Origin: an uncultured beta proteobacterium
Lineage (GTDB): Bacteria > Pseudomonadota > Gammaproteobacteria > Burkholderiales > SG8-41
DNA length: 64,000 nt
Direction: 5' to 3'
Assembly (NCBI GenBank): GCA_963699525.1
Contig: CAVOUI010000012.1
Coordinates: 47,839 to 111,838, forward strand
Shown here: piece by piece, positions 1 through 33,256 of the stretch
Numbering within the stretch: position 1 is the first letter of the stretch
Layout: every line of letters begins with the position of its first letter
The notes under the pieces: generated by a model
Told to the model about the DNA's origin: nothing
The model's database searches: none
What the model saw: the letters and a program-made list of their open reading frames with translations, nothing else
Position numbers and translations under genes: made by a program

Positions 1-655
1 TTCAGCATGAACCCGAATAACCTGGGCCAGCCGTAGAGCCGCACCTTGCGGTCGCTGGTGAGCAGGGGATGGCGGTGAAGGATCACGATCGTCCGCCGCT
101 CGCGCCGTGCCATGCGCTTCAGGCGCCTGAAGAGGTCGAGCTCCTCGCTGGCGTAGAGCGCCTCGCTGAAGCCGCCCGCCGTGCGGAAGGCCGCCGCCTC
201 GCAAAATATGAAGGACCCCGCTGCCCACCGCATGATCCTGCTCAGCGCGTTCCAGCAGTCCAATCGCCAGCGCGACGCCGCGAGGCGGGTTCGCGTAGAC
301 AACGGTGCTGCCCCCGGCCAGACAGCGCCCGGCGGCAATGGCGTCGGCCGCTTCGGAAAAAAGCTCCACTGTCGGGTGGGAATCGGCGTCCACGAAGAAG
401 ATCCAGTCCCCGCCGGCCTCCGGCGGCGCCCGGATTGCGCGCGCGGCTGATCTGGTTCACCGGCTCGAAGACGACGCGCGCTCCCGCCGCCCGGGCGATC
501 GCCGCCGTCCCGTCGGTGGAATTGTTGTCGCAGACGATCAACTCGGACGCCCAGCCGCGCCGGTCGAACGCTTCCATGGCCGCGCGGATGCTGCGGAGCG
601 ACCCGGGCAGCAATCGCTCCTCGTTGAATGCGGGAACGACGACGGAGATCTTCAT
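1..655 (-). pseudogene. Glycosyltransferase family 2 (runs off the window start); the reading frame changes twice (~300 and ~430), so two frameshifts or indel errors
   Basis: N-terminus MKISVVVPAFNEERLL...CDNNSTDGT in the 242-655 frame; GDWIFFVDADSHPT in a second frame; FIFCEAAAFRTAGGFSEALYASEELDLFRRLKR in a third (hand translation of the reverse complement). Confidence 0.7.
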
Positions 656-670
656 CTGGCTGACCTGGAA

Positions 671-846
671 GGACGCGGCCGCAAGGTCAGACCCCCATTG
701 ATAAGGTAGTGGCAGCCCGCCGCGGACTCGAACCGCGAACCTTCCGCTTCAGAGGCGGACGCTCTACCAATTGCGCTAGCGGGCAGCAGATTTGCCGGAC
801 TGGGGTCCGATCTCATTCGACCGTGCGCCGTCGTGGGAAGTTCGAA
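671..846. repeat. Direct repeat copy 1 (~176 bp, ~90% identical to 10551-10725); contains tRNA-Gln plus its 5' leader and 3' trailer
   Basis: Aligned by eye: ggac(g/c)cggccgc..ggtcagaccccc...tRNA...gggcagcag(a/g)tttgccggac..gtcgtgggaagttcgaa. Confidence 0.8.
710..785 (-). tRNA. tRNA-Gln (anticodon CTG)
   Basis: Cloverleaf folded by hand: anticodon stem TCCGC/GCGGA, loop CTCTGAA, T-arm CGCGG-TTCGAGT-CCGCG, 3' CCA encoded; the 1:72 position is a T-T mismatch. Confidence 0.8.
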
Positions 847-876
847 ACCGCGACGGGCAGACCGTGGATCACTCGC

Positions 877-2256
877 TTACTCCAGAGGCTTGAGATCGGC
901 GAGCAGGGTGGGGATCAGCTCGGTGACGGTCGGATGTATGTGCACCGCGTTCTGGATGACCGTATAGGGAGCGCCCGCATACATCACGTCGAGAATCGAG
1001 TGAATGGCCTCATCGGCTTCGATGCCGAGAAGCGCCGCGCCCAGGATCAGCCGGGTCTGCGCGTCGACCACTATCTTCATGAAACCCTGAGTCTCTCCGC
1101 GCTCCCGCGCGCGGCCGACCCGGCTCATCATCATCTTGCCCACCAGCGCCTTGCGGCCCGAGGCCCTCACTTCGCGTTCCGTCATGCCGGCCCGGCCCAG
1201 CGGCGGGTCGATGTAGAGCGCGTAGGCGGGGATGCGGTCGGTCACGCGGCGATGGCCGCCATCGAGCAGGTTGGCGGCGACGATTTCGTAGTCGTTGTAC
1301 GAGGTGTGCGTGAAGGCCCCCCGGCCATTGGCATCCCCGAGCGCCCAGATTCCAGGCACGTTGGTGCGCAGCTCGTCGTCCACCACGATGTAGCCGCGCG
1401 CATCGGTCTTCACGCCGGCCTTCTCGAGCCCGAGGTCGTCGGTGTTCGGCACGCGGCCCACGGCCAGCAGCAGATGCGAGCCCGTGACCTGGGGCGGTCC
1501 GCCTTCGCAGCTCAGGCCCGCCGCGACGCCGTTTCCGCGCTTCGCCACCGTGATGCACTTTGCGTTGAGCCTGATCTCGACGCCTTCGCCCTCCAGGATC
1601 TTCTGGATCGCCGCCGAGACTTCCTCGTCTTCGCGCGCGATCAGCCGCGGTCCCATCTCCACGACCGTCACCCGGCTGCCGAAGCGGCGATACATCTGGG
1701 CGAATTCCAGCCCGATATAGCTGCCGCCGATGACGACGAGGTGCTCGGGCAGGAAATCGATCTCCATCATGCTGGAATTGGTCAGATAGCTGACTTCGGT
1801 GATTCCGGGCATGTCGGGCACGGACGCCCGCCCACCGACGTTGAGAAAGATCTCTGCTCGCCTCCAGCAGTCTCCCGTTGACGCGGACAGTGCGGGGGCC
1901 CTCGAGCCGCGCATGCCCTTCGAGCACCGCGAGGTTGGGCGTATTCCTGAGCCACTTGGTCACGCCCTCGTTGGATTGCCGCACGACGGCGTCCTTGCGG
2001 GCCTTCACGCGCGTCATGTCCACGCTAATGCGCCCGTCGATCGCGACCCCGTATTCGGCGCCGGGCGCGCCACGTGCGCCGCGCGGGCGCTCGCGATCAG
2101 GGTCTTGGTCGGGATGCAGCCGACGTTGACGCAGGTCCCGCCGAAGAGCTTGCGCTCGATGATGGCCGTTTTGCGGCCCGCATTCGCGAGCCGGACCGCG
2201 AGCGAGGGACCGGATTGGCCGGTGCCGATGACGATTGCGTCGTACTTTTCGGACAT
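877..2256 (-). pseudogene. FAD/NAD(P)-dependent pyridine nucleotide-disulfide oxidoreductase (mercuric reductase / dihydrolipoamide dehydrogenase-like), split over three frames
   Basis: N-terminus [11 protein letters not shown] and [13 protein letters not shown] (2014-2256); middle in the 1010-2023 frame; C-terminus VVIGGSYIGLEFA...HIHPTVTELIP in the 877-1914 frame. Confidence 0.7.
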
Positions 2257-2323
2257 GCCATGCCTCCCACCGCAGCGGGGAACCTTAGTGGTCTGGCCCC
2301 TTTAGCTTATCCTCACGCGCTCG

Positions 2324-2698
2324 TCATTTCCGAAACAGCAACTCGCGCGCTTTTTCGTAAATCGCATCGATCCCAAGCTTTTTTTCCGTCACGTCATCCG
2401 CTTCCCAGCGATCCGGGCTGATCCAATATTGGGATTTCAGCAGGCACCGGTTTGCCAGATCCCGGTCGAATCGGCGAACGGGCACGGCGGCCTTGCTCCA
2501 CAATCGGGCAAGTTCCTCCTCATGTTTGCGCTTTCGCCGTCCAGTCTTTTCGAGTCGTGCGAGGTAAATCTTGGTCTCATTGGCGGCCGCATAGATGGCC
2601 GCGAGCGCCGCATCCATCAGATCATCGCGACGGTGGCGCTCGCTCGAAAAGTAGTCGAGCAGTTTCCCCAGCCCGGGGATTGCCTCAAGCATTGTCAT
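2324..2698 (-). CDS. Hypothetical protein (124 aa)
   Basis: ORF with a protein-like composition; no family recognised. Confidence 0.4.
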   Translation of the reverse strand: MTMLEAIPGLGKLLDYFSSERHRRDDLMDAALAAIYAAANETKIYLARLEKTGRRKRKHEEELARLWSKAAVPVRRFDRDLANRCLLKSQYWISPDRWEADDVTEKKLGIDAIYEKARELLFRK

Positions 2699-2728
2699 CG
2701 CCGTTACCCATCGGACCGTTTCCGCGAA

Positions 2729-3211
2729 TCATGGATGAAGCTCGAACTCCCCGTTGATTTCGACCGCAATGCCGCGCGGCAAGGCGGCGTGTCCCACCGC
2801 CGAGCGGGCGTGCTTGCCGAACTCGGGACCCCAGAGTTCGAAAAAAAGATCCGAGGCGCCGTCGATAACTTGAGGCTGCTGGACGAAATCCGGCGCGCAG
2901 TTGCACATGCCGAACAGGCGCAGCACGCGCTTCACCCGGTCCAGGTCGCCACAATGCGCCTTGATCGTAGCCATCATGGTGAGGGCCACCGCGCGCGCGG
3001 TCGCGTAGCCTTCCTCCACCGTGATGTCCACGCCGAACTTGCCGGTCTGCCGGACACTGGGCAGCTTGGGCAGGTCCAGTCCGTGGCCCGACAGCAGGAG
3101 TAGCGTGCCGGACTGGGTGCACCCCGTGCGGTTGTTCTTCGGGAAGACGAACGGGGGCGGCAACTCGTAGCCCATTCGCTTCAGACGTGATTCGATGGTG
3201 CCCATGGTCAT
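2729..3211 (-). CDS. RidA/YjgF (Rid) family protein
   Basis: 160 aa; Rid-like motifs (ARAVALTMMATIKA, GIAVEINGEFEL). Confidence 0.7.
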   Translation of the reverse strand: MTMGTIESRLKRMGYELPPPFVFPKNNRTGCTQSGTLLLLSGHGLDLPKLPSVRQTGKFGVDITVEEGYATARAVALTMMATIKAHCGDLDRVKRVLRLFGMCNCAPDFVQQPQVIDGASDLFFELWGPEFGKHARSAVGHAALPRGIAVEINGEFELHP

Positions 3212-4230
3212 TGGGGCTTGATGCCGATGGCTTCGCCGAGCTTGCGTGTGCGGGCGATGTAGTCGCGCGCAAAGGCCTCGAATTTCGCCGGCGGGCTCGA
3301 CACCGGCTCCGCGCCGAGCACGAACAGGCGCTCGCCGACGTCGGGCAGCGCAAGAATGCGCGCCATTTCCTTTGACACGCGCTCCCGGATCGGCAGCGGG
3401 GTGCCGGCCGGCGCGAACACGCCGAACCAGTCGTCGCCCTCGTACCCGGGCAGCCCCGCTTGCGCGAGGCTCGGTATGCCCGGCAGGAAACGGGCGCCGG
3501 CGGGAGATGTCGTCGCCAGGATTTGCAGCTTGCCCGCCCGCGCGAGCGGGATCGCATTCGGGCCCGGCGCAAACGCGTAGAGGACCCGCCCGGTCATCGC
3601 CTCGTTGACCGCTTCCGGCGTGCCGCGCTGCGGCGCATGGTCGGCCTTGATGCCCGCGAGGTGGGCCACGGCGGCCGCGTGTAGATGGGCGGTGCTGCCG
3701 ACGCCGGCCGAAGTGTAGAAAATTCCGGCGGGCTGCTTCTTGGCGTACGCGATCATCTCCTTGAGCGAGCTGAAGCCGTGCGACGTCGATACGACCAGGA
3801 AGCTCGGCGAACGCGCCATCTGGCCGACGCCCGAGAAATCGCGCGTCGCGTCGTAGGGCAGGCTGCGATCGATCGCGGCGCGCACGGCGAACGCGCTCGC
3901 CACCGCGAGGAAGGTGCGGCCATCGGGCTTCTGTGTCGCGACGTACTGGGAACCGACCACGCCGCCGGCGCCCACCCGGTTATCCACCAGCGCGGTGATC
4001 TTCCAGTTGTCGGCAAGGTGCTTCGCGACGATGCGCATGATGACGTCCGTGCCGCCGCCCGCTGTGAAAGGGACCACGAAGCGGATTTGCTGCGGCGGAT
4101 AGCCTGCGGCGGGGTCGGGTGCCTGCGCCGGCGCCAACGCGGGCACCACCAGTGCGGCGACCGCCAGGACACGCAGCACCGGCAAGACGCCGCAGTGGCA
4201 ACGAACGGAAGTCAACGAGCTTGGTTTCAT
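3208..4230 (-). CDS. tctC: TctC (Bug-family) tripartite tricarboxylate transporter substrate-binding protein
   Basis: Signal peptide, FVVPFTAGGGTD, DNRVGAGG, conserved YTSAGVGST; AAAGGAAAA Shine-Dalgarno before the ATG at 4230. Confidence 0.85.
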   Translation of the reverse strand: MKPSSLTSVRCHCGVLPVLRVLAVAALVVPALAPAQAPDPAAGYPPQQIRFVVPFTAGGGTDVIMRIVAKHLADNWKITALVDNRVGAGGVVGSQYVATQKPDGRTFLAVASAFAVRAAIDRSLPYDATRDFSGVGQMARSPSFLVVSTSHGFSSLKEMIAYAKKQPAGIFYTSAGVGSTAHLHAAAVAHLAGIKADHAPQRGTPEAVNEAMTGRVLYAFAPGPNAIPLARAGKLQILATTSPAGARFLPGIPSLAQAGLPGYEGDDWFGVFAPAGTPLPIRERVSKEMARILALPDVGERLFVLGAEPVSSPPAKFEAFARDYIARTRKLGEAIGIKPQ

Positions 4231-4240
4231 GGTTTTCCTT

Positions 4241-5569
4241 TCAGGGAACATACACCCAGAGATCCAGCATCACGACCGCGCCCGGAACGCCGAGCGCGGG
4301 CACTTCGATCGCCGAGAACGGCAGGTGCCGGCCGGGCAGGTATTGCTGCCAGACCTGCCAGGCGCCGTTGAAGTCGCCAAGACTCGTATGGAACTGCTGC
4401 GCGCGCACCACGTTGGCGAGTGAAGTGCCGGCCTTGCGGCAGATGCGCTGCGCCTGCGCGAGCACGGTGTCCATCTGCAGTTGCACGGCGCTGCCAAAGT
4501 GCGGCTGGCGCGGATCGATGCGCGCTGACGGGGCGAGCGCTCCGCCCGCGTCCACCGCCATCAGCCCGGACAGAAACAGCAGGTCACCGGCGCGGATTGC
4601 CTGCACGTGGCCGGCGTAGGCCGTGGGCACGCCGGCATCGATCACCTGTTTGCGGGTGCGGCCGCCGCGGCGCAGGCTGAGGGTGTTGATCTCGATGCGG
4701 CCGGCCTCGCAGATGAAGCCGGGCGTGGCGGTGGTGATGAGGGTGGTGGCGGGCGGCGACTCCGGAAAGTGCTTCGCCCACACTTCGTTGAAGGCCGGGA
4801 TGTCATTGACGTCGCGCAGGTAGACCTGCGCCTTCACCACTTCGGCGAGCGTGTTGCCGACGCTCGCCAGCGCAGGCTTGAGCTTGCGCTCGATCACGAA
4901 CTCGGTCTCGAGCTTGATCGGCGTGCCCTTCCACAGGTGCCCGGCCGGCATCCGTGCCGCGGGATCGATCGGGCCTTCCTCGGTCTTGAGCGCTTCCGCG
5001 GTCTGGCCCGCCACGAACACGTAGTCGCCGCAGGTGAGCACCGGGCTGTAGGCGGAGGTCGCGTGCACCGGAAGATTCTTCGGGCGGTGCTGCACCACCT
5101 CGAAGCCCTTGGCGGGGACGACCGCCATCAGCTGCACTTCCATGTCCTGCCCCGCGAGCAGGAATTTCTGATGCAGGTTCGAGGTGCTGGGCGGCACGTG
5201 GCCCGCGAAGAAATCGCGCCGCACTTCGTGGTAGGCGGGAACGACCTGCCCGCCCGTGTAGTACTGGTCGACCCGCACGACATGCTTGCGGTCGGTGCCG
5301 CCGGCTTTCAGCACTTTCTCGAAATTGGCAAAGATGCGCTGCGCCTCTTTTTTGTGCTTCGGCAGACCGTGGCGCGGCGCGGACTCGTCGACCACCTCGG
5401 CCGCCATGCCGCTCACGAAATCGGCTGTGCCTTTGTGTCCGGTGGCAAACACCCAGCGGCCGGCGCGCACGCCGGGCGCGTAGCGAATGTCGCCGGGCTG
5501 GATGGTGACCGGAAGCAACGCGGTGACTGCGGATTCGGGCCGCGCGGACTTCTTGCTGGCAGGCATCAA
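4241..5569 (-). CDS. Multi-domain RidA/YjgF-like protein (three Rid-like modules, 442 aa)
   Basis: Repeated YjgF-like segments (VFVAGQTA, VYLRDVND; GHVQAIRAGDLLFLSG, DLWVYV). Confidence 0.65.
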   Translation of the reverse strand: MMPASKKSARPESAVTALLPVTIQPGDIRYAPGVRAGRWVFATGHKGTADFVSGMAAEVVDESAPRHGLPKHKKEAQRIFANFEKVLKAGGTDRKHVVRVDQYYTGGQVVPAYHEVRRDFFAGHVPPSTSNLHQKFLLAGQDMEVQLMAVVPAKGFEVVQHRPKNLPVHATSAYSPVLTCGDYVFVAGQTAEALKTEEGPIDPAARMPAGHLWKGTPIKLETEFVIERKLKPALASVGNTLAEVVKAQVYLRDVNDIPAFNEVWAKHFPESPPATTLITTATPGFICEAGRIEINTLSLRRGGRTRKQVIDAGVPTAYAGHVQAIRAGDLLFLSGLMAVDAGGALAPSARIDPRQPHFGSAVQLQMDTVLAQAQRICRKAGTSLANVVRAQQFHTSLGDFNGAWQVWQQYLPGRHLPFSAIEVPALGVPGAVVMLDLWVYVP

Positions 5570-5626
5570 TTCAGGCTCTGGCGAGGGTGGAGCAGGAACA
5601 TCAAAGATAGCTTTGCGGGATCCTGA

Positions 5627-7897
5627 TCACTCGAGAACACCGAGGGTGACGATGCTTTGCGGACTATTGCCCGCGGCGAACGGGCTATTCGCGATCGCCG
5701 TTAACGCACCGGTGGCCGGGTTGATCGCATAGGCGGAAATGCTGTTGTTGTTGATACCGGAATTCGCGGCATAGGCGAACCTACCGCTGAAGTCCACGGT
5801 TACCGATCGCGGTTCCAGGCCTGCGGCGAAGGGGCTAGGCAGCGTCAGCGCACCGGTGGCGGCGTTGATCCCGTAGGCGGAGATGCTGTTGGAGCCGTTG
5901 TTCGCCACGTAGACAAACCGTCCGGCCGGGTCGACCGTCACCGACCAGGGCGTCAAGCCCGCGGCGAATGGGCTTCCGGTAATCAGGGTCAGTGCACCCG
6001 TGACGGAGTCGATCGAATACGCCGATACGCCGGAGCCACCGCTGATGTGCGTCACGTAGACGAAGCGCCCGTTTGGGTCCACCGTCACCGACCGAGGGCC
6101 CTGGCCTGTCAGGATTGTGCCTATCGGCGTGAGAGTGCCCGGATTGAGGATCACACCCGTATCAATCCGGTAGGCCGAAACGCTGTTGCCCTGAAAATTC
6201 GCCACGTACACGAACCGCCCGCTCGGGTCCACCGTTACGGAAACGGGGTCGTTCCCAGCGGCATATGGGCTGGCCAGGCCGGCGAGGACCCCGTTATTCG
6301 GGTCGATCGAGTAGGCGGAGACGCTATCGGAGCCAAGATTCGCTACGTAGAGGAACCGCCCGCTCGGGTCGACGGCGACGGACTGGGGCCCGGACACAGC
6401 GGCAACCCCGCCGGAGAACGGGCTTCCCGGCACCGGCGTCAGGGCCCCTGTGCCGGGGTTGATCGCGTAGCCCGAGAGATTGTTGGAACCGGCGTTAGCG
6501 GCGTAGACAAATCTTCCCATCGGATCGGCGGCGACCGATAGCGGCGTGTCCTCCGTGAGGCTGTTGCCGGCCGGCGCCAGAGCGCCCGTGGACGCGTTGA
6601 TCGTATACGCGGAAACCGAGTTGCCCACGCTGTTCGCCGCATAGGCGAATCTGGGCCGGAAGACGAGCGGCGCCGTTCCCTTGCTCACGGCGACGGATCT
6701 CGGAGCCGACTGGGCACTGACGGTTGCGGAACTCGCGAGTGGCGTGAGCGCGCCGGTCGCGTTGTTCAGCCGATACATGGAGACGTCGTTCGAGGCGACA
6801 TTCGTCACGTATACAAACTGACTGCTCGGATCGACGGCAACTGAGCGGGGGCTGCTGCCCGCCGGGAACGGACTTCCACCGACCGGCATCAGCACCCCGC
6901 TGGCCGCGTCGATCGTGAAGGCGGAAACCGTTCCGGAGACCTCATTCGTCGCGTACACAAATTGCCCGCCCGCGTCCACGGCAACGCTGCTGACACCGCT
7001 GCCGGCAAGAAACGGGCTTCCGGCCACGGGCGTCAGCGCCCCGGTGGCCGCGTCGATCCGGTATACGGATACGTTGTTTGAGGCGCCATTTGCCGCCACG
7101 ACGAACCGCCCGCCCGGCTCGACCAGGACCGACTGGAGACCCGATTCAGCGGCAAACGGGCTGCCGGGCACCGGCGTCAGAGCACCGGTGCTGGTGTTGA
7201 TCGAATACGCCAAGATCTTTTTGTCGAGGAGATTGCTGGCCGCCACGTAGGCGAATCGGCCGCCCGGATCCACGGCCACGGAGAGGGGATTGGTGCCCGT
7301 CATGAACGGGCTCCCCGGCGCCGGAGTCAACGCGCCGGTGGCCGCGTTGATCGTGTAGCCGGAGATCGTGTCGGAAAGCTGGTTCACCGCATAAGCAACG
7401 CGCCCTGCCGCATCCACGGCCACGGATATCGGGCTATTGCCTGCAGCGAATGGGCTGCCCGCAACGGCAGTCAGCGCCCCGCTCGTGGGGTTGATCGTGT
7501 AGGCCGCGACGGCGCCCGCGTTGACATTGCTTGCCACAAAGACAAACCGGGCGTCGGCGTCCATCGCGACGGACGCGGCTCCCGGGATACCCGCGACGTA
7601 GCCGCGTGGCCGCAACTGGCCGGTGGCGGCGTCGACGGCGAAGATGGAGACTGAACTTTCCTGACCGTTGGCCACGTAGGCAAAGCGCGGCGCAGTTACC
7701 GTGGCTGGCGGCGGCATTCCACCGCCACCGCCACCGCCACCGCCTCCACCACCGCACGCAGCGAGGGCGATGGAAACCAGGAGCAGCGATGTCTTGAGAA
7801 ATCGGTGTTTCAATCCGTTCGCGATCCCGGATTGCCCCGGCGGATCGTCGAGGGCAGGGCAGTACGAAATCGCGGCTGAGTTTTTCGGTTCCATCAT
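5627..7897 (-). CDS. Lipoprotein with ~14 YVTN/lactonase-type beta-propeller repeats (two predicted 7-bladed propellers); the likely true start is TTG at 7813
   Basis: Repeats of the form YVAN..SN.VS.Y.ID..TGALTPV.GSPF.AG..P.SVAVDPSGRF.Y; lipobox LLLVSIALAAC followed by a G12 linker. Confidence 0.8.
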   Translation of the reverse strand: MMEPKNSAAISYCPALDDPPGQSGIANGLKHRFLKTSLLLVSIALAACGGGGGGGGGGGGMPPPATVTAPRFAYVANGQESSVSIFAVDAATGQLRPRGYVAGIPGAASVAMDADARFVFVASNVNAGAVAAYTINPTSGALTAVAGSPFAAGNSPISVAVDAAGRVAYAVNQLSDTISGYTINAATGALTPAPGSPFMTGTNPLSVAVDPGGRFAYVAASNLLDKKILAYSINTSTGALTPVPGSPFAAESGLQSVLVEPGGRFVVAANGASNNVSVYRIDAATGALTPVAGSPFLAGSGVSSVAVDAGGQFVYATNEVSGTVSAFTIDAASGVLMPVGGSPFPAGSSPRSVAVDPSSQFVYVTNVASNDVSMYRLNNATGALTPLASSATVSAQSAPRSVAVSKGTAPLVFRPRFAYAANSVGNSVSAYTINASTGALAPAGNSLTEDTPLSVAADPMGRFVYAANAGSNNLSGYAINPGTGALTPVPGSPFSGGVAAVSGPQSVAVDPSGRFLYVANLGSDSVSAYSIDPNNGVLAGLASPYAAGNDPVSVTVDPSGRFVYVANFQGNSVSAYRIDTGVILNPGTLTPIGTILTGQGPRSVTVDPNGRFVYVTHISGGSGVSAYSIDSVTGALTLITGSPFAAGLTPWSVTVDPAGRFVYVANNGSNSISAYGINAATGALTLPSPFAAGLEPRSVTVDFSGRFAYAANSGINNNSISAYAINPATGALTAIANSPFAAGNSPQSIVTLGVLE
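7705..7757. repeat. (CCACCG)n/(GGN)n hexanucleotide simple-sequence repeat encoding the poly-Gly linker of the propeller lipoprotein
   Basis: ccaccgccaccgccaccgccaccgcctccaccaccg. Confidence 0.8.
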
Positions 7898-8255
7898 GCC
7901 TCCTCGATCGTCCTCGCTGCGGGTCGCGCGATGCGAGCGGACCTGGAGGGGGTGTTGTTCGATTTCCGGACCATTGTATGCCCCTTGGCGTTGCCTTGGC
8001 GCCCTTGGGCTTCGTAGAGCAAGCCGGAAGGATGAACATCGAAGGAACCGGGCCCGATTTTTTGTCGATTGACTGAGCCTGGCCCCTTCATCTCATTGAT
8101 TAGCGCATCAGGGCGATGCGCTCCGGATCCGGTGTCAGGATTATTGCCACAGGTGGAAGGGGTGGGGACCGCCTTTGCTTGGGCAGAATCGCGCCAAACC
8201 CCGGCGACGACAAATGGGCAAGCCCATTTTCCGATCCCGCCGTTATCATTCCTGT

Positions 8256-9350
8256 ATGCGGGTGGTCGTACTAGGCGGCTACGGAAACTTCGGGGCTCGA
8301 ATCTGCCGGGAGCTCGCCGGAGATTCAGGGATCGAGGTCATTTCGGCTGGCCGCAACCCACTTGCGATCCCTTCCGGAGCAAACATCCGGACTGCGCGGC
8401 TCGATCTCGCGTCTAGTGATTTTCCCGCAGCGCTTCGATCGCTGTATCCGGACCTGGTCATGCATTGCGCCGGCCCGTTTCAGGGCCAGGATTATCGAGT
8501 AGCCGCGGCGGCGCTCGCGGCGGGCGCGCACTACATTGATCTCGCGGACGGCCGCGCCTTCGTTGCCGCGTTTGCAGGGCAGCTGGATGCTGTCGCACGG
8601 GCGGCAGGGCGATTGGCGATCACCGGGGCGAGCACCTTGCCCGGGCTCTCGTCCGCGGTTGTGGACCACCTTGCGCAGCGCTTCCAGAAAATAGACGAAA
8701 TCCAGATCTCGATTGCGCCTGGCCAGAAGGCGCCGCGCGGGACCGCCACGATCGCGGGAGTTCTGAGCTACGCCGGCAAGCCGTTCAAGCGACTGCGCCT
8801 CGGACGCTGGTCGGATGCGTGGGGCTGGCAGGGGCTGAAGCGCATCCGGTTCGCCGGCGTGGGGATGCGTCTTGCAGCCGCGTGCGACGTGCCCGACCTT
8901 GAGCTCTTTCCGCGGCGCTATCCGGGCGTGCGCACGGTCGAGTTTCGCGCGGCGCTGGAACTCAGCGTCCAGACGATGGGTATCGCGCTGATGGCTTCGC
9001 TGCGGCGAGCGGGATTGCCGTTGCCGCTCGAGCGATGGGCCGGCTTTGTGAACCGCGCGGCTTCGCTTCTTGACCGGTTTGGCACGGACCGTGGCGGAAT
9101 GCTTGTGTCCGTGAGCGGTATGCGCCTCGACGGACGCCGGGGAAGCGCCGAATGGCACATTACTGCCGGGAACAATCACGGCCCGGAGATACCGTGCATG
9201 GCGGCGATCCTCATGGCGCGTAAACTCGCGAGCGGGGAGATCACCATGAGCGGCGCGCATCCCTGCATGGGGTTCCTCGGCCTCGCCGACTTCGAGCCCG
9301 AGTTTGCGCGCTGGGGCATGACGACCGTCATCGAGGAGCATCCGGCTTGA
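8256..9350 (+). CDS. Saccharopine dehydrogenase-like NAD(P)-binding protein
   Basis: Rossmann MRVVVLGGYGNFG; ATG at 8256 inside the longer ORF 8175-9350. Confidence 0.8.
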   Translation: MRVVVLGGYGNFGARICRELAGDSGIEVISAGRNPLAIPSGANIRTARLDLASSDFPAALRSLYPDLVMHCAGPFQGQDYRVAAAALAAGAHYIDLADGRAFVAAFAGQLDAVARAAGRLAITGASTLPGLSSAVVDHLAQRFQKIDEIQISIAPGQKAPRGTATIAGVLSYAGKPFKRLRLGRWSDAWGWQGLKRIRFAGVGMRLAAACDVPDLELFPRRYPGVRTVEFRAALELSVQTMGIALMASLRRAGLPLPLERWAGFVNRAASLLDRFGTDRGGMLVSVSGMRLDGRRGSAEWHITAGNNHGPEIPCMAAILMARKLASGEITMSGAHPCMGFLGLADFEPEFARWGMTTVIEEHPA

Positions 9351-9456
9351 GCGGCGTCTTGCGTTCTGGAAGACGGCGCATGTCCTGAGCGCGGCGATCC
9401 TGTTCGGCACCGGGATCGGCATCGCATTCTTCTGCTGGTTCGGGTTCCGGCGCGCG

Positions 9457-9840
9457 TTGCGGACCGGCGACATCGCGGGGCTGCGCCTCATGCTGCGGCT
9501 GACCGTGCTGGCTGACGCCTGGTTTACTGCGCCAGCCGTCGTCTTTCAGGCGGCCAGCGGTCTGGTCCTAATGATTCTCCTCGGCTGGCCGCTGGCGAGC
9601 CCATGGTCCATCGCTGTTTGGTCGTTGTTCATATTCACGGGCGCCTGCTGGTTACCGGTGATCGTCATGCAGGTCTGGCTGAGCCGCGAGGCCGACCGTG
9701 CGCCCTCCATCGAAGCACTGCCTGCGCGATTTCACCAGTGGTTTCGCCTGTGGTTTGTGCTGGGGATTCCGGCGTTCACGGCGGTGGTGCTGCTTTTCTA
9801 TTTGATGATCGCGAAGCCGTTTGCCATAACGCTTGCGTGA
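9457..9840 (+). CDS. DUF2269-family membrane protein; homology and the open frame extend upstream to ~9352 with no start codon
   Basis: TM helices; the upstream in-frame KTAHVLSAAILFGTGIGIAFF matches the family N-terminus but no ATG/GTG/TTG is present. Confidence 0.55.
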   Translation: MRTGDIAGLRLMLRLTVLADAWFTAPAVVFQAASGLVLMILLGWPLASPWSIAVWSLFIFTGACWLPVIVMQVWLSREADRAPSIEALPARFHQWFRLWFVLGIPAFTAVVLLFYLMIAKPFAITLA

Positions 9841-9842
9841 CC

Positions 9843-10307
9843 ATGGCCCACGGTAGGCTCGTCTTTGTCATGCCTGCGGGTAGCCCGGACGCGTTCGAAG
9901 CTTTCTTCAATCACAGCGTCAGGCTCCGCTGGGACACGCTGTTGAGCGTCAACTACGTGGAAAGCGGCGGAACGCATCCTTACGTCGGCGCCGTCTCGAC
10001 GAACCGCGGGCGCGGATGGAAAACGGGCATGACGATGCGCACGCGCTTCCTGTCCTACGATCCGCCGCGCCAGGCGTCCGCGGAACTGGTCGAACCCACG
10101 GGCCCATTCGCACTCTGGGCCGCATCGATGCGATTCAAGGACCGCGATGACGGAGGATCGGATCTGATCTACACGTATGCGATCCGGCTGCGACCCCGCT
10201 GGGTCGGTGTATTGTTAGATTGGCTTGCCGGTATCCTGTTCGCGTGGGAAACGCGGCGGCGATTTGCGGCGATGGCGGACTATTTGCGCGCGGTTCGAGA
10301 GAAGTAG
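9843..10307 (+). CDS. SRPBCC (polyketide cyclase/dehydrase-like) family protein
   Basis: ~155 aa from the ATG at 9843 inside ORF 9603-10307. Confidence 0.65.
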   Translation: MAHGRLVFVMPAGSPDAFEAFFNHSVRLRWDTLLSVNYVESGGTHPYVGAVSTNRGRGWKTGMTMRTRFLSYDPPRQASAELVEPTGPFALWAASMRFKDRDDGGSDLIYTYAIRLRPRWVGVLLDWLAGILFAWETRRRFAAMADYLRAVREK

Positions 10308-10360
10308 GGTCAATCAGGCTTTTCAATTATCAGTTCCCGCAATAGACACCGGAGACGAAG

Positions 10361-10549
10361 ATGGCAAACAACGTTCAGGAAATCGTGGTGACCGATATCA
10401 GGATCCCGTTCGTGTCGATGGTCGTGCTGATGGTGAAGTGGGCGCTCGCGGCGATCCCGGCATTCATCATTCTGATTAGTATCGGGGTGGCGGTCTCGAT
10501 CCTGCTCACCGCGCTGTTCGGCCCCATGGACTGGCATGGGAGGATGTAG
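10361..10549 (+). CDS. Small hydrophobic protein (62 aa), hypothetical
   Basis: GGAG Shine-Dalgarno 7 nt upstream; two predicted TM segments. Confidence 0.35.
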   Translation: MANNVQEIVVTDIRIPFVSMVVLMVKWALAAIPAFIILISIGVAVSILLTALFGPMDWHGRM

Positions 10550-10550
10550 A

Positions 10551-10725
10551 GGACCCGGCCGCGGGGTCAGACCCCCTTGATGCGGTAGTGGCAGCCCGCC
10601 GCGGACTCGAACCGCGAACCTTCCGCTTCAGAGGCGGACGCTCTACCAATTGCGCTAGCGGGCAGCAGGTTTGCCGGACCGGGGTCCGGTCTCGTTCGAC
10701 CGTGCGCTGTCGTGGGAAGTTCGAA
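10551..10725. repeat. Direct repeat copy 2 (tRNA-Gln plus leader and trailer)
   Basis: ~90% identical to 671-846. Confidence 0.8.
10589..10664 (-). tRNA. tRNA-Gln (anticodon CTG), second copy
   Basis: Identical to the 710-785 gene. Confidence 0.8.
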
Positions 10726-10733
10726 TCGAGCCG

Positions 10734-10795
10734 GCAAAAAAAAATTAAAATGGAAAAGAACGTGAAAACAAAACGACGTAGGTCGAAAGCATGAC
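10734..10795. other. AT-rich ~60-bp filler joining repeat copy 2 to the truncated TctC gene
   Basis: gccggcaaaaaaaaattaaaatggaaaagaacgtgaaaacaaaacgacg sits in a 68% GC background. Confidence 0.6.
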
Positions 10796-11389
10796 CTGGA
10801 GATCGCCCGATACCAGGTCGATGAGCGCCGGGCCGCCGCCCTTGTAGGGCACGTGCGTCATGCGAATGCCGGCGAGCCGCTGGAAGTTCACCCCCGCGAG
10901 GTGATCGAGCTGGCCGGGCCCGGAGCTGCCGAAGCGCGTCTCATCCGTGCGCTTCTTCGCCCACTCGATGAATTGCCTCGGGTCGCGCACACCGATCGCA
11001 GGATTGACCACCATCACGTTGATGATCTCCGCCGCGCGCGTGATCGGCAGGAAATCGCGCTCCGCGTCGTACGGGAGCTTCTTGTAGAGCCACTGGCTGA
11101 TCGCGAGCGGGCCCACGCCGCCCACCAGCAGCGTGTAGCCGTCGGGCTCGGCCTTGGCGAGGAGATCCGTCGCCAGGCGCCCGGCGGCGCCCGGGCGGTT
11201 GTCGATGACGATCGTCTGGTGGAGCTGCGCGGCGAGCGGCTCGGCGACGGTGCGCCCGATGGTGTCGGCGGCCCCGGCCGCCGGGAACGGAATGAGGATG
11301 CGGATCGGGCGCACCGGGTAGCTCTGCTGCGCCCATGCCGGTGCCATCGCGATGGACAGCAGGACAGCGGTCCATGTTGCTTTCTTCAT
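10745..11389 (-). pseudogene. tctC: TctC-family substrate-binding protein, 3'-truncated at ~residue 200; the reading runs into the AT-rich filler
   Basis: Normal N-terminal ~200 aa; the C-terminus LSTYVVLFSRSFPF is read-through of the filler, and ~120 aa are missing. Confidence 0.7.
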
Positions 11390-11404: not shown

Positions 11405-12448
11405 TTAGCCCCGGGTGTCGGCCCAGGGGTGAAGCACGATCTTGTGCGCTTCGACGTTGCGCGCTTCGAGCAGCTTCAGGGCGTCTTCGGCCCGCTCGAG
11501 CGGAAAGCGGTGGCTGATGTAGCGGTCGGGATCCACGCGGCCGCTCGCGATCAGCTCGAGGCACGCCGGGAATGCCCGGAAATTGCCGCGCGAGAAGTTG
11601 AGGTCGATCTCGCGATCCTTGAGGTACGCGATCGGGATCGTCGCCCGGTTCTCCGGAAACGTTCCCACCACGGTGATCTGCCCGCCGCGCTTCACGATGG
11701 CGGCGGCGTCCGCGACGGTGCGCTCCTGGAATCCTCCGACGCATTCGACCACCTTGTCGAATCCGCGCCCGCCGGTTGCGGCGAGCGCGCGGGCGCGCAG
11801 GTCGCCGGCGTCCGGATTCATCGTGTGCGGGATGCCGAGGCTGCGCGCCAGCGCCAGGCGGTAGTCGAGAAGGTCGAGTATCGTGACCTCGGCGCGCAAC
11901 GACCGCGCGATGAGCGCGGCACCGAGCCCGATCGGCCCGGCCCCGATGACCGCGACCCGCTCCCCCGGGGCCGGCTTCACCCGGTCGGCGACGGCGTGGT
12001 AGCTGATGCCGAGCACCTGCACGGCGGAGGCCTGGTCGTAGCTCACGTTCTCCGGAAGCGGATGCAGGTTGAAATCCGGCACCGCCGCGTACTCGGCGTA
12101 GGCGCCATCGCGGTCGAAGCCCATCGTCCGCAGCCGCTCGCAGATGTTGCCGCGGCCCTCGCGGCAGGGCCCGCACTGCCCGCACGGGAAATCGATGTCG
12201 CAGCAGACGCGCTGCCCGACGCGGAACCCCTTCACCGCGCCCCCGAGCGCAACGATCTCGCCGGCGAACTCGTGGCCCAGCACGCGGGGAAAGGTGAGCC
12301 GCGGGTGCTTGCCATGGTAGGCATGCAGGTCGGAGCCGCAGATCGAGCACGCGCGGACCTGGACCACCGCCTCGTTGGGCGCCGGCGCGGGATCGGGAAC
12401 GGTCTCGCGGCGCAGGTCTCCGCCGCCGTGCAGCACCATCGCCTTCAT
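11405..12448 (-). CDS. Zn-dependent alcohol dehydrogenase (MDR family)
   Basis: CSICGSDLH, GHEFAG, Rossmann GAGPIGL. Confidence 0.85.
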   Translation of the reverse strand: MKAMVLHGGGDLRRETVPDPAPAPNEAVVQVRACSICGSDLHAYHGKHPRLTFPRVLGHEFAGEIVALGGAVKGFRVGQRVCCDIDFPCGQCGPCREGRGNICERLRTMGFDRDGAYAEYAAVPDFNLHPLPENVSYDQASAVQVLGISYHAVADRVKPAPGERVAVIGAGPIGLGAALIARSLRAEVTILDLLDYRLALARSLGIPHTMNPDAGDLRARALAATGGRGFDKVVECVGGFQERTVADAAAIVKRGGQITVVGTFPENRATIPIAYLKDREIDLNFSRGNFRAFPACLELIASGRVDPDRYISHRFPLERAEDALKLLEARNVEAHKIVLHPWADTRG

Positions 12449-13083: not shown

Positions 13084-14058
13084 TCATTGCTGAAGCCCTG
13101 CAGCTTCAGCCACCCGTACCCACTTCGCGATCTCGCCGCGGATGAACGCGCCGAAGTCGGCCGGGCTCTGCGTCATGGGGCGCGAGCCGTCCGCCGCCAT
13201 ATGGTTCACGACGTCGGGCATTGCGGCGGCCTTGACGAGCTCGCCGTGCAGGCGTTCCACGATCGCGGGCGGCGTGCCCGTCCTGACGGATATGCCGTTC
13301 CAGATGAGGTGCTCGAAGCCCTTCACGCCGGATTCGGCGATCGTCGGATATTCCGGCAGCAGCGGCCAGCGCTCGGCGCTGCCCATGCCGAGGTTGCGGA
13401 TGCGGCCGGCCTTCACGTGCGGCAGCGATGAGATCGGGTTGGTGAACGCGCAGGTGACCTCGCCGGAGAGGAGGGCGGTCGTGACGAGCGCGCTGCCCTT
13501 GTAGGGAACGTGCAGGAGGTCGACGCGGGCCTCGATCCGGAACAGCTCCCCGCCGAAGTGGGAGCCGCTGCCGATGCCCGCGGAGCCGAAGGTGATTTCT
13601 TTCGGCCGGGCCCGCGCCAGGGCGATGAACTCCTTGACGGAGCGCACCGGCAGCGACGCATGCACGATCAATGCGCCCGGCACCACCGCGAGGCGCGTCA
13701 CCGGCGCGAAATCATTGACCGGATCGAACGGCAGCTTGCGGACGAGCGCAGGCGCCGACGTGAAGGACGTGCTGACGAGATACAGCGTGTAGCCGTCCGC
13801 CGGCGCCTTGGCGACAGTTTCAGAGGCGATGACGCCGGCCGCTCCCGGACGGTTCTCCACGATCACCGGCTGGCCCAGGCTCGCCGTGAGCCGTGTGCCG
13901 ATCAGGCGCGCGGTCGTGTCGTTGCCGCCACCGGGGGCGAGCGGAACGATGATCCGCAGCGGCTTGGCGGGGTAGCCCTGCGCGTGCGCTACCCCGAGGC
14001 AGAAGGCAGAAGTCAGAAGGCAGAAAGCAACGAAGCGCCTCACGATCTTCTCCTTCAT
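13084..14058 (-). CDS. tctC: TctC-family substrate-binding protein
   Basis: Signal peptide, IIVPLAPGGGND, ENRPGAAG. Confidence 0.85.
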   Translation of the reverse strand: MKEKIVRRFVAFCLLTSAFCLGVAHAQGYPAKPLRIIVPLAPGGGNDTTARLIGTRLTASLGQPVIVENRPGAAGVIASETVAKAPADGYTLYLVSTSFTSAPALVRKLPFDPVNDFAPVTRLAVVPGALIVHASLPVRSVKEFIALARARPKEITFGSAGIGSGSHFGGELFRIEARVDLLHVPYKGSALVTTALLSGEVTCAFTNPISSLPHVKAGRIRNLGMGSAERWPLLPEYPTIAESGVKGFEHLIWNGISVRTGTPPAIVERLHGELVKAAAMPDVVNHMAADGSRPMTQSPADFGAFIRGEIAKWVRVAEAAGLQQ

Positions 14059-17057: not shown

Positions 17058-17789
17058 ATGAAGATGCTCGAGGGGAAGACGGTTGCGATGACGGGCGGCG
17101 GCGGCGCACTCGGGCGCTGCTACGGCCTCGCCATGGCAAAAGCCGGCGCGGCCATCGCGGTATCGGACGTCAAACTCGCCGCTGCGCAGGCGACGGCGGA
17201 CGCCATCGTTAAGGCCGGTGGCCGCGCGATCGCGGTCCAGACGGACGTGACCCGGGCGGCGGCGTTCGAGCAGCTCCTCGATCGCGCCGAGGCCGCGTTC
17301 GGTCCGCTCGACGTGCTGCTCAACATTGCCGGCATCTTTCCGCGGCGGGCGCTCGTGGATTTGCCGGAGGAGGAGTGGGACGCGGTAATCACGACCAATC
17401 TGAAAAGCGTCTACCTCGGCGCCCGCGCCGCGATCCGCCGCATGCTGCCGCGCAAGCGCGGAGTGGTCCTCAGCACGGCCTCCGGAACCGGAATCCGGGG
17501 GCAGCCCAATTCATCGGCCTATTCCGCCTCCAAGGCGGGGATCATCGGCTTCACCCGCGCGGTTTCGCTCGAGCTCAAAGACTCGGGCGTGCGCATCAAC
17601 TGCTTCGGCCCCGGCGCGACGGACACTCCGCTCTGGCGCGTCGGCAAAAGCGAGCAGGACATCAAGCGCCTGCTGGCCGCGGGCTACGTCTATCAGCCGG
17701 ACGATTTCTCGAACGTCGTCGTGTTCCTCGCGAGCGACCTGTCCGCGCCGTTGAACGGCGAGTTCATCAGCCGCGACTTGCACCGCTAG
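17058..17789 (+). CDS. SDR-family oxidoreductase
   Basis: MTGGGGALG, NIAG, YSASKAG. Confidence 0.85.
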   Translation: MKMLEGKTVAMTGGGGALGRCYGLAMAKAGAAIAVSDVKLAAAQATADAIVKAGGRAIAVQTDVTRAAAFEQLLDRAEAAFGPLDVLLNIAGIFPRRALVDLPEEEWDAVITTNLKSVYLGARAAIRRMLPRKRGVVLSTASGTGIRGQPNSSAYSASKAGIIGFTRAVSLELKDSGVRINCFGPGATDTPLWRVGKSEQDIKRLLAAGYVYQPDDFSNVVVFLASDLSAPLNGEFISRDLHR

Positions 17790-18313
17790 CGCGAGCCCGC
17801 CGGCGCGACGAGCTGGCGGGCGACCTCATCCACGTGGCGCAGCGTGAGCGCCCGGACTTCCTCCGGCTTGAGGTTGCTGATCGGGTGCGGCAGCGCGACG
17901 AACGGGTGCCCGGCCATGCCCCGGCCGCGGAACTGGAACTCGGCCGCCTTGAGGAAGGCGGTCGTGATGACGACGGTGGCGGGAATGCCGCGTTTCTCGA
18001 ACTCGATGGTGTCGTGCACACTGCACAACGTGCACGAGCCTCACCCGCCGAGCGCCGCGACGGCGACTTGCGCCTCCTTTGCCATTTCATCGATCAGGGC
18101 ATCCGGTGCGGGCTTCGAGTAGTGGTCCTTCCGCCGCAGGATGACGCGCGCAGCGCCGTAGCGCTCGCGCAGCGCGGCGCCGATCGTCTCGAGAATGATG
18201 TCGCCCTGCTCCTTGGTGTTGTCGAGCAGCGCCACGACCTTGCCCGCGAGGCTGGCGGGGCGCGGCGCGGCTGCGATTGCGCGGACGCCGCTGCCGGCGC
18301 TGGGGTCGATCAA
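17786..18313 (-). CDS. Candidate UGSC-family selenoprotein with an in-frame TGA (Sec) at 18041-18043 and a SECIS-like hairpin
   Basis: ORF 18041-18313 ends ...AVAALGG-TGA and continues in the same frame as GSCTLCSVHDTIEF (ORF 17786-18028), giving GG-U-GSC; an 8-bp hairpin UCGUGCAC-N10-GUGCACGA begins 5 nt after the UGA. Confidence 0.6.
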
Positions 18314-22040: not shown

Positions 22041-24223
22041 CTAGAGGCGGATCGGCAGCGAGCGCACCCGCTTGCCGGTGGCGGCGAAGACTGCGTTCGC
22101 GACCGCGGGCGCGATGACCGGCGTCGCGGGCTCGCCCACGCCGCTCGGCTTCTCGCTCGAGGCCACGATGTGCACGTCGACCCGCGGCATCTCGTTCATG
22201 CGCAGCGGCGCGTAATCGTGAAAGTTCGACTGCTCGACTACGCCGTCCTTGAGCGTGATCGCGCCGTGCAGCGCCGCCGTCAGCCCGTAGGCAATGCCGC
22301 TTTCCATCTGGGCGCGGATCACCGAGGGATTCACCGCCACGCCGCAGTCGACGGCGCACACCACGCGGTTAACCTGGAGCGCCCCGTCGCGCACCGTCAC
22401 CTCGGCGACCTGCGCAACGAATGTGTTGAACGATTCGTGAACGGCGATGCCCCGGCCCCGCTGCGCGCCCGCTGCCTGCGCGAGCGGCTTGCCCCAACCG
22501 GCCCTCTGCGCGGCGAGCTCCAGCACGCCCTTGTGGCGCGAGGTGCTTGGCGAGCAGCGTGCGGCGCAGCTCGTAGGGGTCCTTGCCGGTGGCCGCGGCG
22601 ATCTCGTCCAGGAATGTTTCGGTCGAGAACGCGGTGTGGGTCGAGCCCACCGAGCGCCACCACTGGACCGGGACGCCCATTTTCGGCGAATGCAGCTCGA
22701 CGCTCAGATTGGGAATGCCGTAGGGGAGGGTGCTCGCGCCTTCGACCGAAGTGGCGTCGATGCCGTTCTTGACCATCGCGCTCTCGAACGCGGTGCCGGC
22801 GAGGATGGATTGCCCGACGATGCGGTGATGCCAGGCGATGATCCGGCCCTGCGCGTCGAGCCCCGCCTTGAGCACGTGGTAATTCAGAGGGCGGTAGTAG
22901 CCCGCCTGCATGTCGTCCTCGCGCGTCCACACCAGCTTCACCGGCGCGCGGCCGTTGATCGCCTTCGCGATCGCCGCGGCCTCGACGAGGTAATCCGAGC
23001 GCGGATTGGCCCGGCGGCCGAAGCTGCCGCCCGCGTAGAGCATGTTCAGGCTCACCTGCTCGGGCTTCAGCCCCACCACGCTCGCGACTGCTACCTGATC
23101 CCCGGTCTGCATTTGCTCGCCGTTCCAGACTTCGCACGCGTTCGCGCCGAGCTTCACCACGCAGTTCATCGGCTCCATCGCCGCATGCGCGAGGTAGGGG
23201 AATTCGTAGGCCGCCTCCAGAGTCTTCGCCGCGCCGGCGAGCGCGCGATTGACGTCGCCATCCCTGCGCGCGGAGAGCCCCAGTGTTGCCGCGCGCTTGC
23301 GGTACTCGGCCAGGATCTCGGCCGAGCCGAGCTTGAACGCGCCCGTCTCGTCCCATCGCGATCAGTAGCGCGTCGCGGCCGGACTTGGCCGTCCAGAAGT
23401 CTCCCGCCAGCACCGCCACCCCCTGAGGGATTGCCACCACGTCGGTCACGCCCTTGACCGCCTTTGCCTTCGCGGCGTCGAAGGACTTCACCCGCGCGCC
23501 GAAGCGCGGCGGATGCGCGACGACCGCGGTCAGCATCCCGGGAAGCTTCACGTCCTGCGTGAAGATCGCGGTGCCGGTGGACTTCGCGCGGCTGTCCGGG
23601 CGCGGCACCCGCTTGCCGATATAGACGAAGCTCTTCGGGTCCTTCAGCTTCACCTCGGCCGGCACCAGCTGCTTCGCGGCGTCCGCGGCGAGCTGCCCGA
23701 AGCTCGCCTTGCGCCCGGAGGCCTTGTGCAGCACCGTGCCGCGGCTCACCGTGATCGAGCCGGGCTCGACCCTCCAGCGCTGCGCGGCGGCGGCAACCAG
23801 CATCGCGCGCGCGGTGGCGCCCGCCTTGCGCAGCTGCTCCCAGGAATTCGCGATCGCGGTGCTGCCGCCCGTGCCCTGCGCCGGTCCCCAGAACAGGTTG
23901 TTGTAGCGGCTCGCGTCGGCCGGCGCCGGCTGGACGATGACCTGGCCCCAGTCGGCATCGAGCTCCTCGGCGACGAGCGTGGGCAGCCCGGTGTAGGTGC
24001 CCTGGCCCATCTCCAGGTGCTTGACCACGACGGTCACCCGGCTGTCCGTTCCGATGCGGACGAAGGCGTTTGGTTCGAACGCGCCGGCGGCGACAGCCTT
24101 GCCGCCCGCCCGGCCGGGTCCCGCCTGGGCAAATACCGACGGTGCCGCGAGGCCGAGCGTGAGGCCGGCGCCGGCCTTGAGGAAATCGCGCCGGCTCAGG
24201 TTGACGATGCCGAGAGTGTCCAT
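22041..24223 (-). pseudogene. Molybdopterin-binding subunit of an IorB/aldehyde-oxidase-type xanthine dehydrogenase family enzyme with a Tat signal; broken into at least three frames
   Basis: Start MDTLGIVNLSRRDFLKAGAGL at 24223 with an AGGAGGA Shine-Dalgarno; pieces in ORFs 22397-24625, 22369-23178 and 22041-22526. Confidence 0.7.
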
Positions 24224-24231
24224 GTGTCCTC

Positions 24232-32982: not shown

Positions 32983-33052
32983 TAGTTGGAGCGGGAGTCG
33001 AACCCGCGACTCGTCGATTACAAGTCGACTGCTCTACCTACTGAGCTATCCA
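32983..33052 (-). tRNA. tRNA-Thr(TGT)-like remnant: the D, anticodon and T arms are intact but the 5' acceptor strand is missing or unpaired (pseudo-tRNA)
   Basis: Anticodon arm GTCGA-CTTGTAA-TCGAC, T arm GCGGG-TTCGACT-CCCGC; it starts directly after the CCA of the next tRNA; acceptor pairing is only 4 of 7. Confidence 0.4.
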
Positions 33053-33125: not shown

Positions 33126-33256
33126 CAACATCCGCCGCTCCCGCGCCGCGGTACACGCCAAGCCGATGTTTCAGGCCGAGCGCGCCAGGGAGGACTCACG
33201 AGCCTCGCCCGCTGCGATGTTTCGCGTTCACGACGAATTCTGTGCAGGGATGTGGC

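Follow-up and report, generated by a model that had tools for sequence, protein, structure and literature searches.

Genomic islands integrated at tRNA genes are defined in Islander by a regenerated tRNA gene accompanied by a displaced fragment and by an integrase that the island encodes (PMC4383910), and when an element integrates site-specifically at such a gene, neither the 5' half of the tRNA nor the promoter region becomes duplicated (PMC4383910). Islands that have no integrase and are flanked by imperfect direct repeats also exist, as exemplified by the microcin H47 island of E. coli (PMC3191183, PMC5426353). The locus described here lies in a 64,000-nucleotide stretch of DNA (hereafter the window, in whose coordinates all positions are given) from an uncultured beta proteobacterium of the Burkholderiales (contig CAVOUI010000012.1), in which two direct repeats, each holding a whole tRNA-Gln(CTG) gene, bracket 9.7 kb of unique DNA. 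On balance, and with moderate confidence, the pair is best explained as a duplication of the complete tRNA-Gln(CTG) unit that did not involve an integrase and took place where DNA was rearranged within a native zone of chromosomal plasticity.

The two tRNA-Gln(CTG) genes were called by ARAGORN and Rfam at 710-785 and 10589-10664, both on the minus strand, and the leader is therefore on the higher-coordinate side of each repeat. Copy 1 (670-846, minus strand) comprises a trailer (670-709), the tRNA and a leader (786-846), and copy 2 (10550-10725, minus strand) comprises the same parts (trailer, 10550-10588; leader, 10665-10725). Local alignment of 846 to 670 with 10725 to 10550 paired 177 with 176 nt in 166 identical columns (93.8%), including 56 of 61 positions in the leader and 34 of 40, plus one gap, in the trailer; a repeat finder returned a shorter span (693-846 and 10572-10725; 154 nt at 95%), and the longest exact core is 85 nt in direct orientation. 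An earlier reading made from the letters of the window (the sequence-only reading) had described direct repeats of ~175 bp, each with a complete tRNA-Gln(CTG) and leader, at ~90% identity; the repeats, their content and their length are confirmed, while the identity is the higher value given here. The tRNA copies are 9.9 kb apart and, as nothing in the window is repeated beyond the 177 nt and the 9.7 kb between the copies is unique, a simple tandem duplication is ruled out, and with it the tandem-duplication junction that the same reading had offered as one possibility.

The mature tRNA sequence is identical between the copies (76/76), and each full-length copy encodes CCA and scores 55.8 bits against Rfam RF00005 (threshold 29) as a canonical cloverleaf. 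The flanks of the two genes differ at 11 of 101 columns, which gives a probability of ~1.6e-4 for the absence of any change in 76 nt, and the tRNA part is therefore under selection or subject to gene conversion. Four substitutions fall in two small leader and trailer stems, each turning a pair to G.U or back, a fifth sits in the loop of the leader hairpin, and the leader and trailer hairpins are retained in both copies. Non-standard pairs occur in both genes at positions 1-72 (U.U, an unpaired acceptor end) and 12-23 (a G.A mismatch).

Each repeat begins 3 nt ahead of a conserved promoter-like element, GAACTT-N17-TCGAA(T/C), which leader alignment placed on the minus strand at 838-843 (GAACTT) and 815-820 (TCGAAT) in copy 1 and at 10717-10722 (GAACTT) and 10694-10699 (TCGAAC) in copy 2. 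Among ten aligned loci, the leader is kept from GAACTT to the tRNA in nine, with a 17-nt spacer of variable sequence, and the sequence just upstream of GAACTT, like the trailer, is different in almost every lineage; a trailer type in common is found only between the two window copies. The pattern GAACTT-N17-TCNAA occurs in the 64-kb window only at both tRNA leaders (0.02 expected) and in seven independent relatives (L003, L004, L005, L007, L008, L017 and L018, where L numbers denote related loci) at the tRNA leader only. As a whole, the unit extends from ~70 nt upstream of the tRNA, where the -35-like element opens it, to a short hairpin that closes it ~40 nt downstream. Neither a sigma-70 consensus nor an intrinsic terminator was detected in either tRNA unit, and the single terminator-like match lies within the truncated TctC gene described below. 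Based on the 76/76 identity set against 11% divergence in the flanks, the kept motif and the kept hairpins, both tRNA-Gln copies are probably functional.

The second -10 position of the motif is a C in all nine of the ten aligned loci that keep it, and this C together with the variable spacer resembles the promoters of extracytoplasmic function (ECF) sigma factors of the sigma-E/AlgU kind over those of sigma-70, which would be unusual for a tRNA gene. A more elaborate proposal, which we consider very doubtful, is that the tRNA-Gln(CUG) unit would be a self-contained module with an ECF (sigma-E/AlgU-like) promoter, encoding a stress-sigma-dependent tRNA with an unpaired U1.U72, such that duplication would double the regulated supply and the 177-nt repeats would make the 9.7 kb a RecA-excisable cassette. 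If the motif is truly ECF-type, a stress-regulated tRNA gene would be a modest side result.

Upstream of leader 2 lies TctC', a 3'-truncated periplasmic binding-protein gene (10769-11389, minus strand) with ~206 of 325 codons retained. The open reading frame (ORF; 10745-11389, minus strand) spans Pfam TctC positions 2-160 of 274, its orthologues have 325 aa, and homology to the full-length orthologue in L012 (GCA_036555615.1) stops at ~10769, after ...STYVV, beyond which the L012 gene runs on for the 119 codons missing from TctC', in line with the loss of ~120 codons noted from the letters of the window. A filler (10726-10768, minus strand) is present between TctC' and leader 2, as had also been noted, though it measures 43 nt and not ~60 bp; it is T-rich, and the truncated ORF takes its final 9 codons and its stop from it. 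Searches of the window and all loci for the source of the filler and of the junction at 847-876 returned only chance matches of 10-14 nt, and T-rich tracts ahead of the leader also occur in L001, L006 and L009. Upstream of this TctC, three lineages conserve the same partner, the gene for a Zn-dependent alcohol dehydrogenase (ADH; 11405-12439, minus strand), with the ADH-TctC pair followed in L012 by a 206-aa gene, an amidohydrolase and a YVTN beta-propeller gene, and in L021-L023 by a 299-aa gene, a TPR gene and PBP1A. In none of the relatives examined for this pair (L012, L021-L023) is it followed by a tRNA.

Relatives were collected by scans for the exact tRNA in species-representative genomes, metagenomes and viral contigs, and protein-guided look-ups added 14 loci. 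The exact tRNA-Gln sequence is present in two of ~185,000 species-representative genomes, both of them Betaproteobacteria metagenome-assembled genomes (MAGs) with no synteny with the window beyond TctC paralogues, in seven metagenome contigs, and nowhere in the viral collection. None of twenty related loci has a second tRNA-Gln copy (at most one each), so the comparison of synteny proposed by the sequence-only reading returned no relative that carries both repeats, and the junctions upstream of the leaders (PNDR/tRNA1 and TctC'/tRNA2) are seen in this genome only. The locus had been described as a signature of recombination or integration; the lost TctC 3' end, the unique junctions and the single copy in relatives bear out a recombination junction, and integration is not borne out, given that the repeat holds the tRNA 5' half and promoter region and that no integrase was found in the ORFs scanned.

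Read along the tRNA direction, with antisense genes marked (-), the window has the order amidohydrolase(-), SDR, TctC, 80 aa(-), ADH, TctC', tRNA2, 62 aa(-), 154 aa(-), DUF2269(-), a saccharopine-dehydrogenase-like (SDH-like) gene(-), YVTN, RidA genes, TctC, RidA, 124 aa, PNDR, tRNA1 and a family-2 glycosyltransferase (GT2). The neighbourhood is kept as a gene set and scrambled in order, with shuffled arrangements in L008, L012, L013/L014, L015-L017, L018, L020 and L021-L023. In L008 the order is GST, 195 aa, HK(-), a 44-nt remnant of the 154-aa gene, tRNA, GT2, M48, PNDR, DsbA and TctC; in L007, TctC (88% to window 13084-14058), GST and tRNA; in L010/L011, TctC, RidA, intact PNDR and rhomboid(-), at 97-98% to window 2701-5169 and with homology that stops at 859. 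L012 has ADH, TctC, 206 aa, amidohydrolase(-), YVTN and Fer2-MoCoBD, such that YVTN adjoins the amidohydrolase 2 kb from ADH-TctC, and L013/L014 have GspA-like, T2SSB, PNDR and MBL. L017 has tRNA, 78 aa with PIN, 154 aa(-), SDH-like(-), GT2 and HigB, an order repeated in L015/L016 with amidohydrolase(-) in place of the tRNA; L018 has PNDR, further along HigB, and then amidohydrolase(-), 79 aa, tRNA, HAD, TctC, GT2 and GST; and L020 has GT2, NMT1, PhzF, 175 aa, DUF2703, tRNA and, at some remove, rhomboid. Toxin-antitoxin pairs (PIN, HigB, BrnT/BrnA, ParE/RHH and Gp49/HTH) are interspersed in L013, L015-L018 and L020.

Even close strains differ in this way. L015, L016 and L017 encode an identical GT2 protein, and the tRNA-Gln unit is present only in L017; comparison of L015 3230-3434 and L016 with L017 236-400 places the join to the L015/L016 amidohydrolase ~27 nt 3' of the tRNA end in L017. 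The frame of amidohydrolase(-), tRNA and GT2 is common to the window, L018 and, as a composite, L015-L017, and in relatives that have it the distance from tRNA to GT2 varies, at 0 kb in L008, 2.25 kb in L018 and 2.4 kb in L017, against 9.9 kb in the window. The SDH-like and 154-aa genes are colinear with those of L015-L017, the closest colinear relatives, where the gap from the SDH-like gene to GT2 is 46 nt; compared with these loci, the window therefore has an extra block at 669-8249 (minus strand), which includes copy 1. This extra block holds intergenic DNA, YVTN, RidA genes, TctC, PNDR and tRNA copy 1, and its genes are native ones (98% to L011; YVTN as in L012); genes of the bracketed segment have orthologues (75-100% aa) in the chromosomal neighbourhoods of relatives. 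Copy 2 occupies the place of the single L017 tRNA, with the 154-aa and SDH-like genes downstream, and copy 1 that of the single L008 tRNA, directly upstream of GT2, with spacers that cannot be aligned. Homology to relatives stops at gene limits, namely 9 to 17 nt past the PNDR stop, at the SDH-like start and 13 nt before the GT2 start.

A palindromic intergenic element, ACAAATGGGCAAGCCCATTT, with conserved flanks occurs at window 8169-8229, L008 10652-10696, L013 296-337 and 2908-2965, and L018 19318-19376; it is found twice beside dinB-like genes, and its window copy is set ~20 nt in from an edge of the extra block. Two 44-45-nt blastn matches link the window to L008, of which one comes from the 154-aa gene, whose 3' end survives in L008 at a distance of 450 nt upstream of the tRNA, and the other was rejected as evidence of synteny since it is this palindromic element, which recurs in several relatives.

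In this lineage the same set of ~20-40 genes keeps together, with an order that is reshuffled between species and even close strains. Under the favoured explanation, a duplication of the unit without an integrase, breakpoints would be tolerated only between functional units, with the tRNA unit behaving as one, and the duplicated piece would therefore be one tRNA gene unit and not an att core. Copy 2 may keep the ancestral upstream frame, with the amidohydrolase antisense upstream and the 154-aa and SDH-like genes downstream as in L017, and copy 1 lies at the end of the block of 7.6 kb (669-8249) that would have come to stand between the SDH-like gene and GT2. The last 119 TctC codons would have been lost in one rearrangement, which left the 43-nt filler, and the second copy could have been made by illegitimate, template-switch or homologous recombination, or by import from a lineage with the other arrangement, in each case without an integrase. 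A RecA-dependent crossover in the 85-nt core could delete or loop out 9.7 kb, leaving one hybrid tRNA gene. The leaders of the two copies are as near to L004 as to each other (3-5 differences), whereas their trailer type is private to them. The simplest category for the locus is a paralogous tRNA gene born during local rearrangement.

The gene content of the segment and its left flank was assigned by Pfam and NCBIfam domain scans of ORFs. Nearest to copy 1, the PNDR (FAD oxidoreductase) gene (877-2256, minus strand) reads as a pseudogene with a -1 shift near 2064 and a +1 shift near 1857 relative to intact 459-aa orthologues (L008, L010, L013, L014 and L018), which puts 69 codons, with three stops, out of frame; its homology to all relatives stops 9-17 nt past its stop codon (859-868). 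The PNDR allele is a mosaic, the first ~300 nt being 96-100% identical to L010 and the remainder 83-94%, a pattern that implies exchange with a diverged allele by recombination. Next to PNDR, at higher coordinates, is a 429-nt stretch (2272-2700, minus strand) that has no counterpart in the 98%-identical L010 and L011 and carries an ORF of 124 aa (2324-2698) matching phrog_12412, of unknown function (E = 1e-18). Short GATGnnGTnACGG-like repeats at the edges of 2272-2700 point to an insertion in the window or else to a deletion in L010/L011; kinship of the ORF with the 124-aa HigB partner in L015 and L018 was considered and rejected, the two being unrelated.

Beyond this stretch, the minus strand carries a YjgF/RidA-like gene (2729-3211), TctC (3208-4251), a three-domain RidA gene (4241-5569) and a YVTN/lactonase-type beta-propeller protein (5627-7897; 75% aa to the L012 orthologue), with window 2701-5169 aligning to L011 at 98.4% identity and without gaps. 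On the plus strand are the SDH-like gene (8256-9350; true start 8256; 88% aa to L015-L017), DUF2269 (9457-9840), a 154-aa protein with no family match (9843-10307; 92% aa to L015-L017) and a 62-aa membrane protein (10361-10549) that ends at the trailer of copy 2. The earlier list of PNDR, RidA, TctC, YVTN, saccharopine dehydrogenase-like and DUF2269 genes holds, with the amendment that PNDR is frameshifted; the SRPBCC assignment for 9843-10307 does not, as that gene had no Pfam or NCBIfam match. Left of copy 1, the GT2 gene (1-655, minus strand) is cut by the window edge and, when compared with intact orthologues of 241 aa, shows two +1 frameshifts, near 420 and near 255. Further along, MoCoBD (22041-24230) is likewise shifted by +1 twice against two relatives, a UGSC-family gene (17786-18313) appears split in two, and a GFO/IDH/MocA gene (38590-38955) matches the C-terminal half only. 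Frameshifts were considered as a signature local to the junction, and this was ruled out, as MoCoBD also has two and the UGSC and GFO/IDH/MocA genes also look disrupted; the frameshifted and partial genes are either pseudogenes or assembly consensus errors (residual indels).

Integrase, transposase, recombinase and phage domains (Pfam, NCBIfam, PHROGs) were absent from ORFs at 1-12.9 kb and from selected ORFs up to 42 kb, which upholds the earlier statement that the enclosed segment carries no integrase, and the intergenic gaps in the segment are <360 nt and therefore leave no room for the remnant of one. Phage records and viral contigs gave no match to the segment, and plasmid records matched PNDR only (74%). 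The comparison of 847-10550 with its flanks, which had been put forward as a check, yielded a mild deviation: GC is 0.652 against a mean of 0.668 (standard deviation, 0.009) for equal-sized windows, by tetranucleotide distance from the remaining window sequence, the segment ranks in the top 8% of windows of its size, and GC at third codon positions (GC3), which is 0.85-0.92 in most genes of the flanks, falls to 0.83-0.87 over 877-5569 and to 0.74-0.78 over 5627-9840. No break in GC skew occurs at either repeat, and the mild deviation in composition does not appear to amount to an island signature.

Several observations weigh against a local duplication without an integrase. Its stepwise history cannot be reconstructed, the whole 9.9 kb has no cleanly empty counterpart in any relative, and further events would be needed for each of L008, L017 and L018. 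Variable cargo between the tRNA and GT2, 3' of the tRNA, is the geography of an integration hotspot, and a metagenome-type contig with single-base frameshifts in several genes is of uncertain sequence quality. The leader copies are also five differences apart, and are four (copy 1) and three (copy 2) from L004, so one copy could have been imported from another lineage. It is rather unlikely that the copies are orthologues from two lineages, brought together by homologous recombination between a donor with tRNA-Gln directly upstream of GT2 (as in L008) and an L017-type recipient, with one crossover in GT2 and an illegitimate other end. Such an import would account for a flank divergence of 11%, which is similar to the between-species level, with L004 as near to each copy as the copies are to each other, and would fit the PNDR mosaic (96-100% to L010 for 300 nt, then 83-94%) and the placement of the tRNA directly upstream of GT2 in L008 and in the other position only in L017. 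However, the trailers resemble each other alone and no relative has their type, the L008 tRNA-GT2 spacer cannot be aligned with that of the window, and both the donor and the recipient arrangement are hypothetical.

An element that once targeted tRNA-Gln, then lost its integrase and had its att repeats lengthened to the whole unit by gene conversion, is a still less probable source of the pair. Direct repeats do bracket the segment, cargo between tRNA-Gln and GT2 is variable in relatives and frequently includes toxin-antitoxin modules, GC is slightly lower with GC3 of 0.74-0.78 over 5.6-10.3 kb, and the 124-aa ORF matches a phage protein family. Against these stand the inclusion of the tRNA 5' half and promoter in the repeat, the lack of an integrase both here (with gaps of <360 nt that leave no room for its pseudogene) and in the cargo versions of relatives, the lack of any phage, plasmid or viral match for such an element, and the cargo genes themselves, which are native neighbours in relatives without a tRNA at that place. 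The integrase-less remnant island proposed by the sequence-only reading is not supported for the same reason, since the enclosed DNA consists of native neighbourhood genes with no discrete foreign unit (L011, L012, L015-L017). An att-type duplication is likewise ruled out, the repeat being the whole tRNA with its 5' half and a 61-nt leader and not a 3' fragment. The least probable of these accounts is an assembly artefact, in which wrong routing, collapse or duplication at the 85-nt identical core in a mixed population created the second copy, as could be suspected for a 489,738-bp source contig whose nearest relatives are metagenome-assembled, and from single-base frameshifts in PNDR, GT2 and MoCoBD; yet 11 differences in the flanks, to either side of the core, mark the copies as distinct loci and not one locus used twice, swapped exits would make a 9.9-kb circle without a replication gene, and the truncation of TctC and the filler belong to the structure of the locus and are not errors in single bases.

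Elsewhere in the window, a dense tRNA array occupies 32987-34702 (minus strand), in which ARAGORN found 15 genes and Rfam one more (32987-33052). Among the array genes are Thr(AGT) and a further tRNA-Gln(CTG), whose sequence is different from both repeat copies, and the array is adjoined by SPFH/Band-7 and TctC genes; no integrase was found near the array and its tRNA-Gln was not found in viral contigs. A half tRNA within the array (34067-34121, minus strand; Rfam 33 bits) has a CTT anticodon loop and a possible 3' half ~110-170 nt further, and from its sequence the region (33905-34121) looks like an interrupted or decayed tRNA-Lys-like gene; the group I intron model had no match at this half tRNA.

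The locus shows how unusually fluid this gene neighbourhood is in its uncultured Burkholderiales lineage, with breakpoints at the limits of gene units, and cautions that direct repeats bearing a tRNA are insufficient by themselves to call a genomic island. As in tRNA islands (PMC4383910), direct repeats with tRNA sequence bracket variable DNA that lies 3' of the upstream tRNA copy; unlike in those islands (PMC4383910), where an intact tRNA is paired with a displaced 3' fragment, both repeats here contain the whole 76-nt tRNA and the 61-nt leader, so that a whole gene together with its promoter makes up the second repeat, the cargo is native and no integrase is found near either end. The tRNA-to-GT2 interval, at 0, 2.25, 2.4 or 9.9 kb, has an exact empty site in no relative, and the flanks also differ. 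Islands of the microcin H47 type would be the nearest analogue for a possible excision: they too encode no recombinase and have imperfect flanking repeats, and excision by host recombination is conceivable in both, but the microcin H47 repeats are short and att-like and its excision has been demonstrated, whereas the repeats here are tRNA genes, with the 85-nt core as the predicted substrate for excision.

Templated insertions arise at the breakpoints of replication-based rearrangements (template switching of the microhomology-mediated break-induced replication, MMBIR, type). The window shares with them a short copy (177 nt) of nearby sequence and an orphan filler at a breakpoint that truncates a gene, and differs in that the limits of the copy are those of a functional gene unit and the copies are 6% diverged. 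Multi-copy bacterial tRNA genes are matched in full length, in identical mature sequence and in the possession by each copy of its own promoter-like region and hairpin, while the copies here stand at two rearrangement junctions separated by 9.9 kb, with a gene truncated at one of them, and the relatives sampled have at most one copy. As a paralogous tRNA gene pair, the locus is a case of an already known kind.

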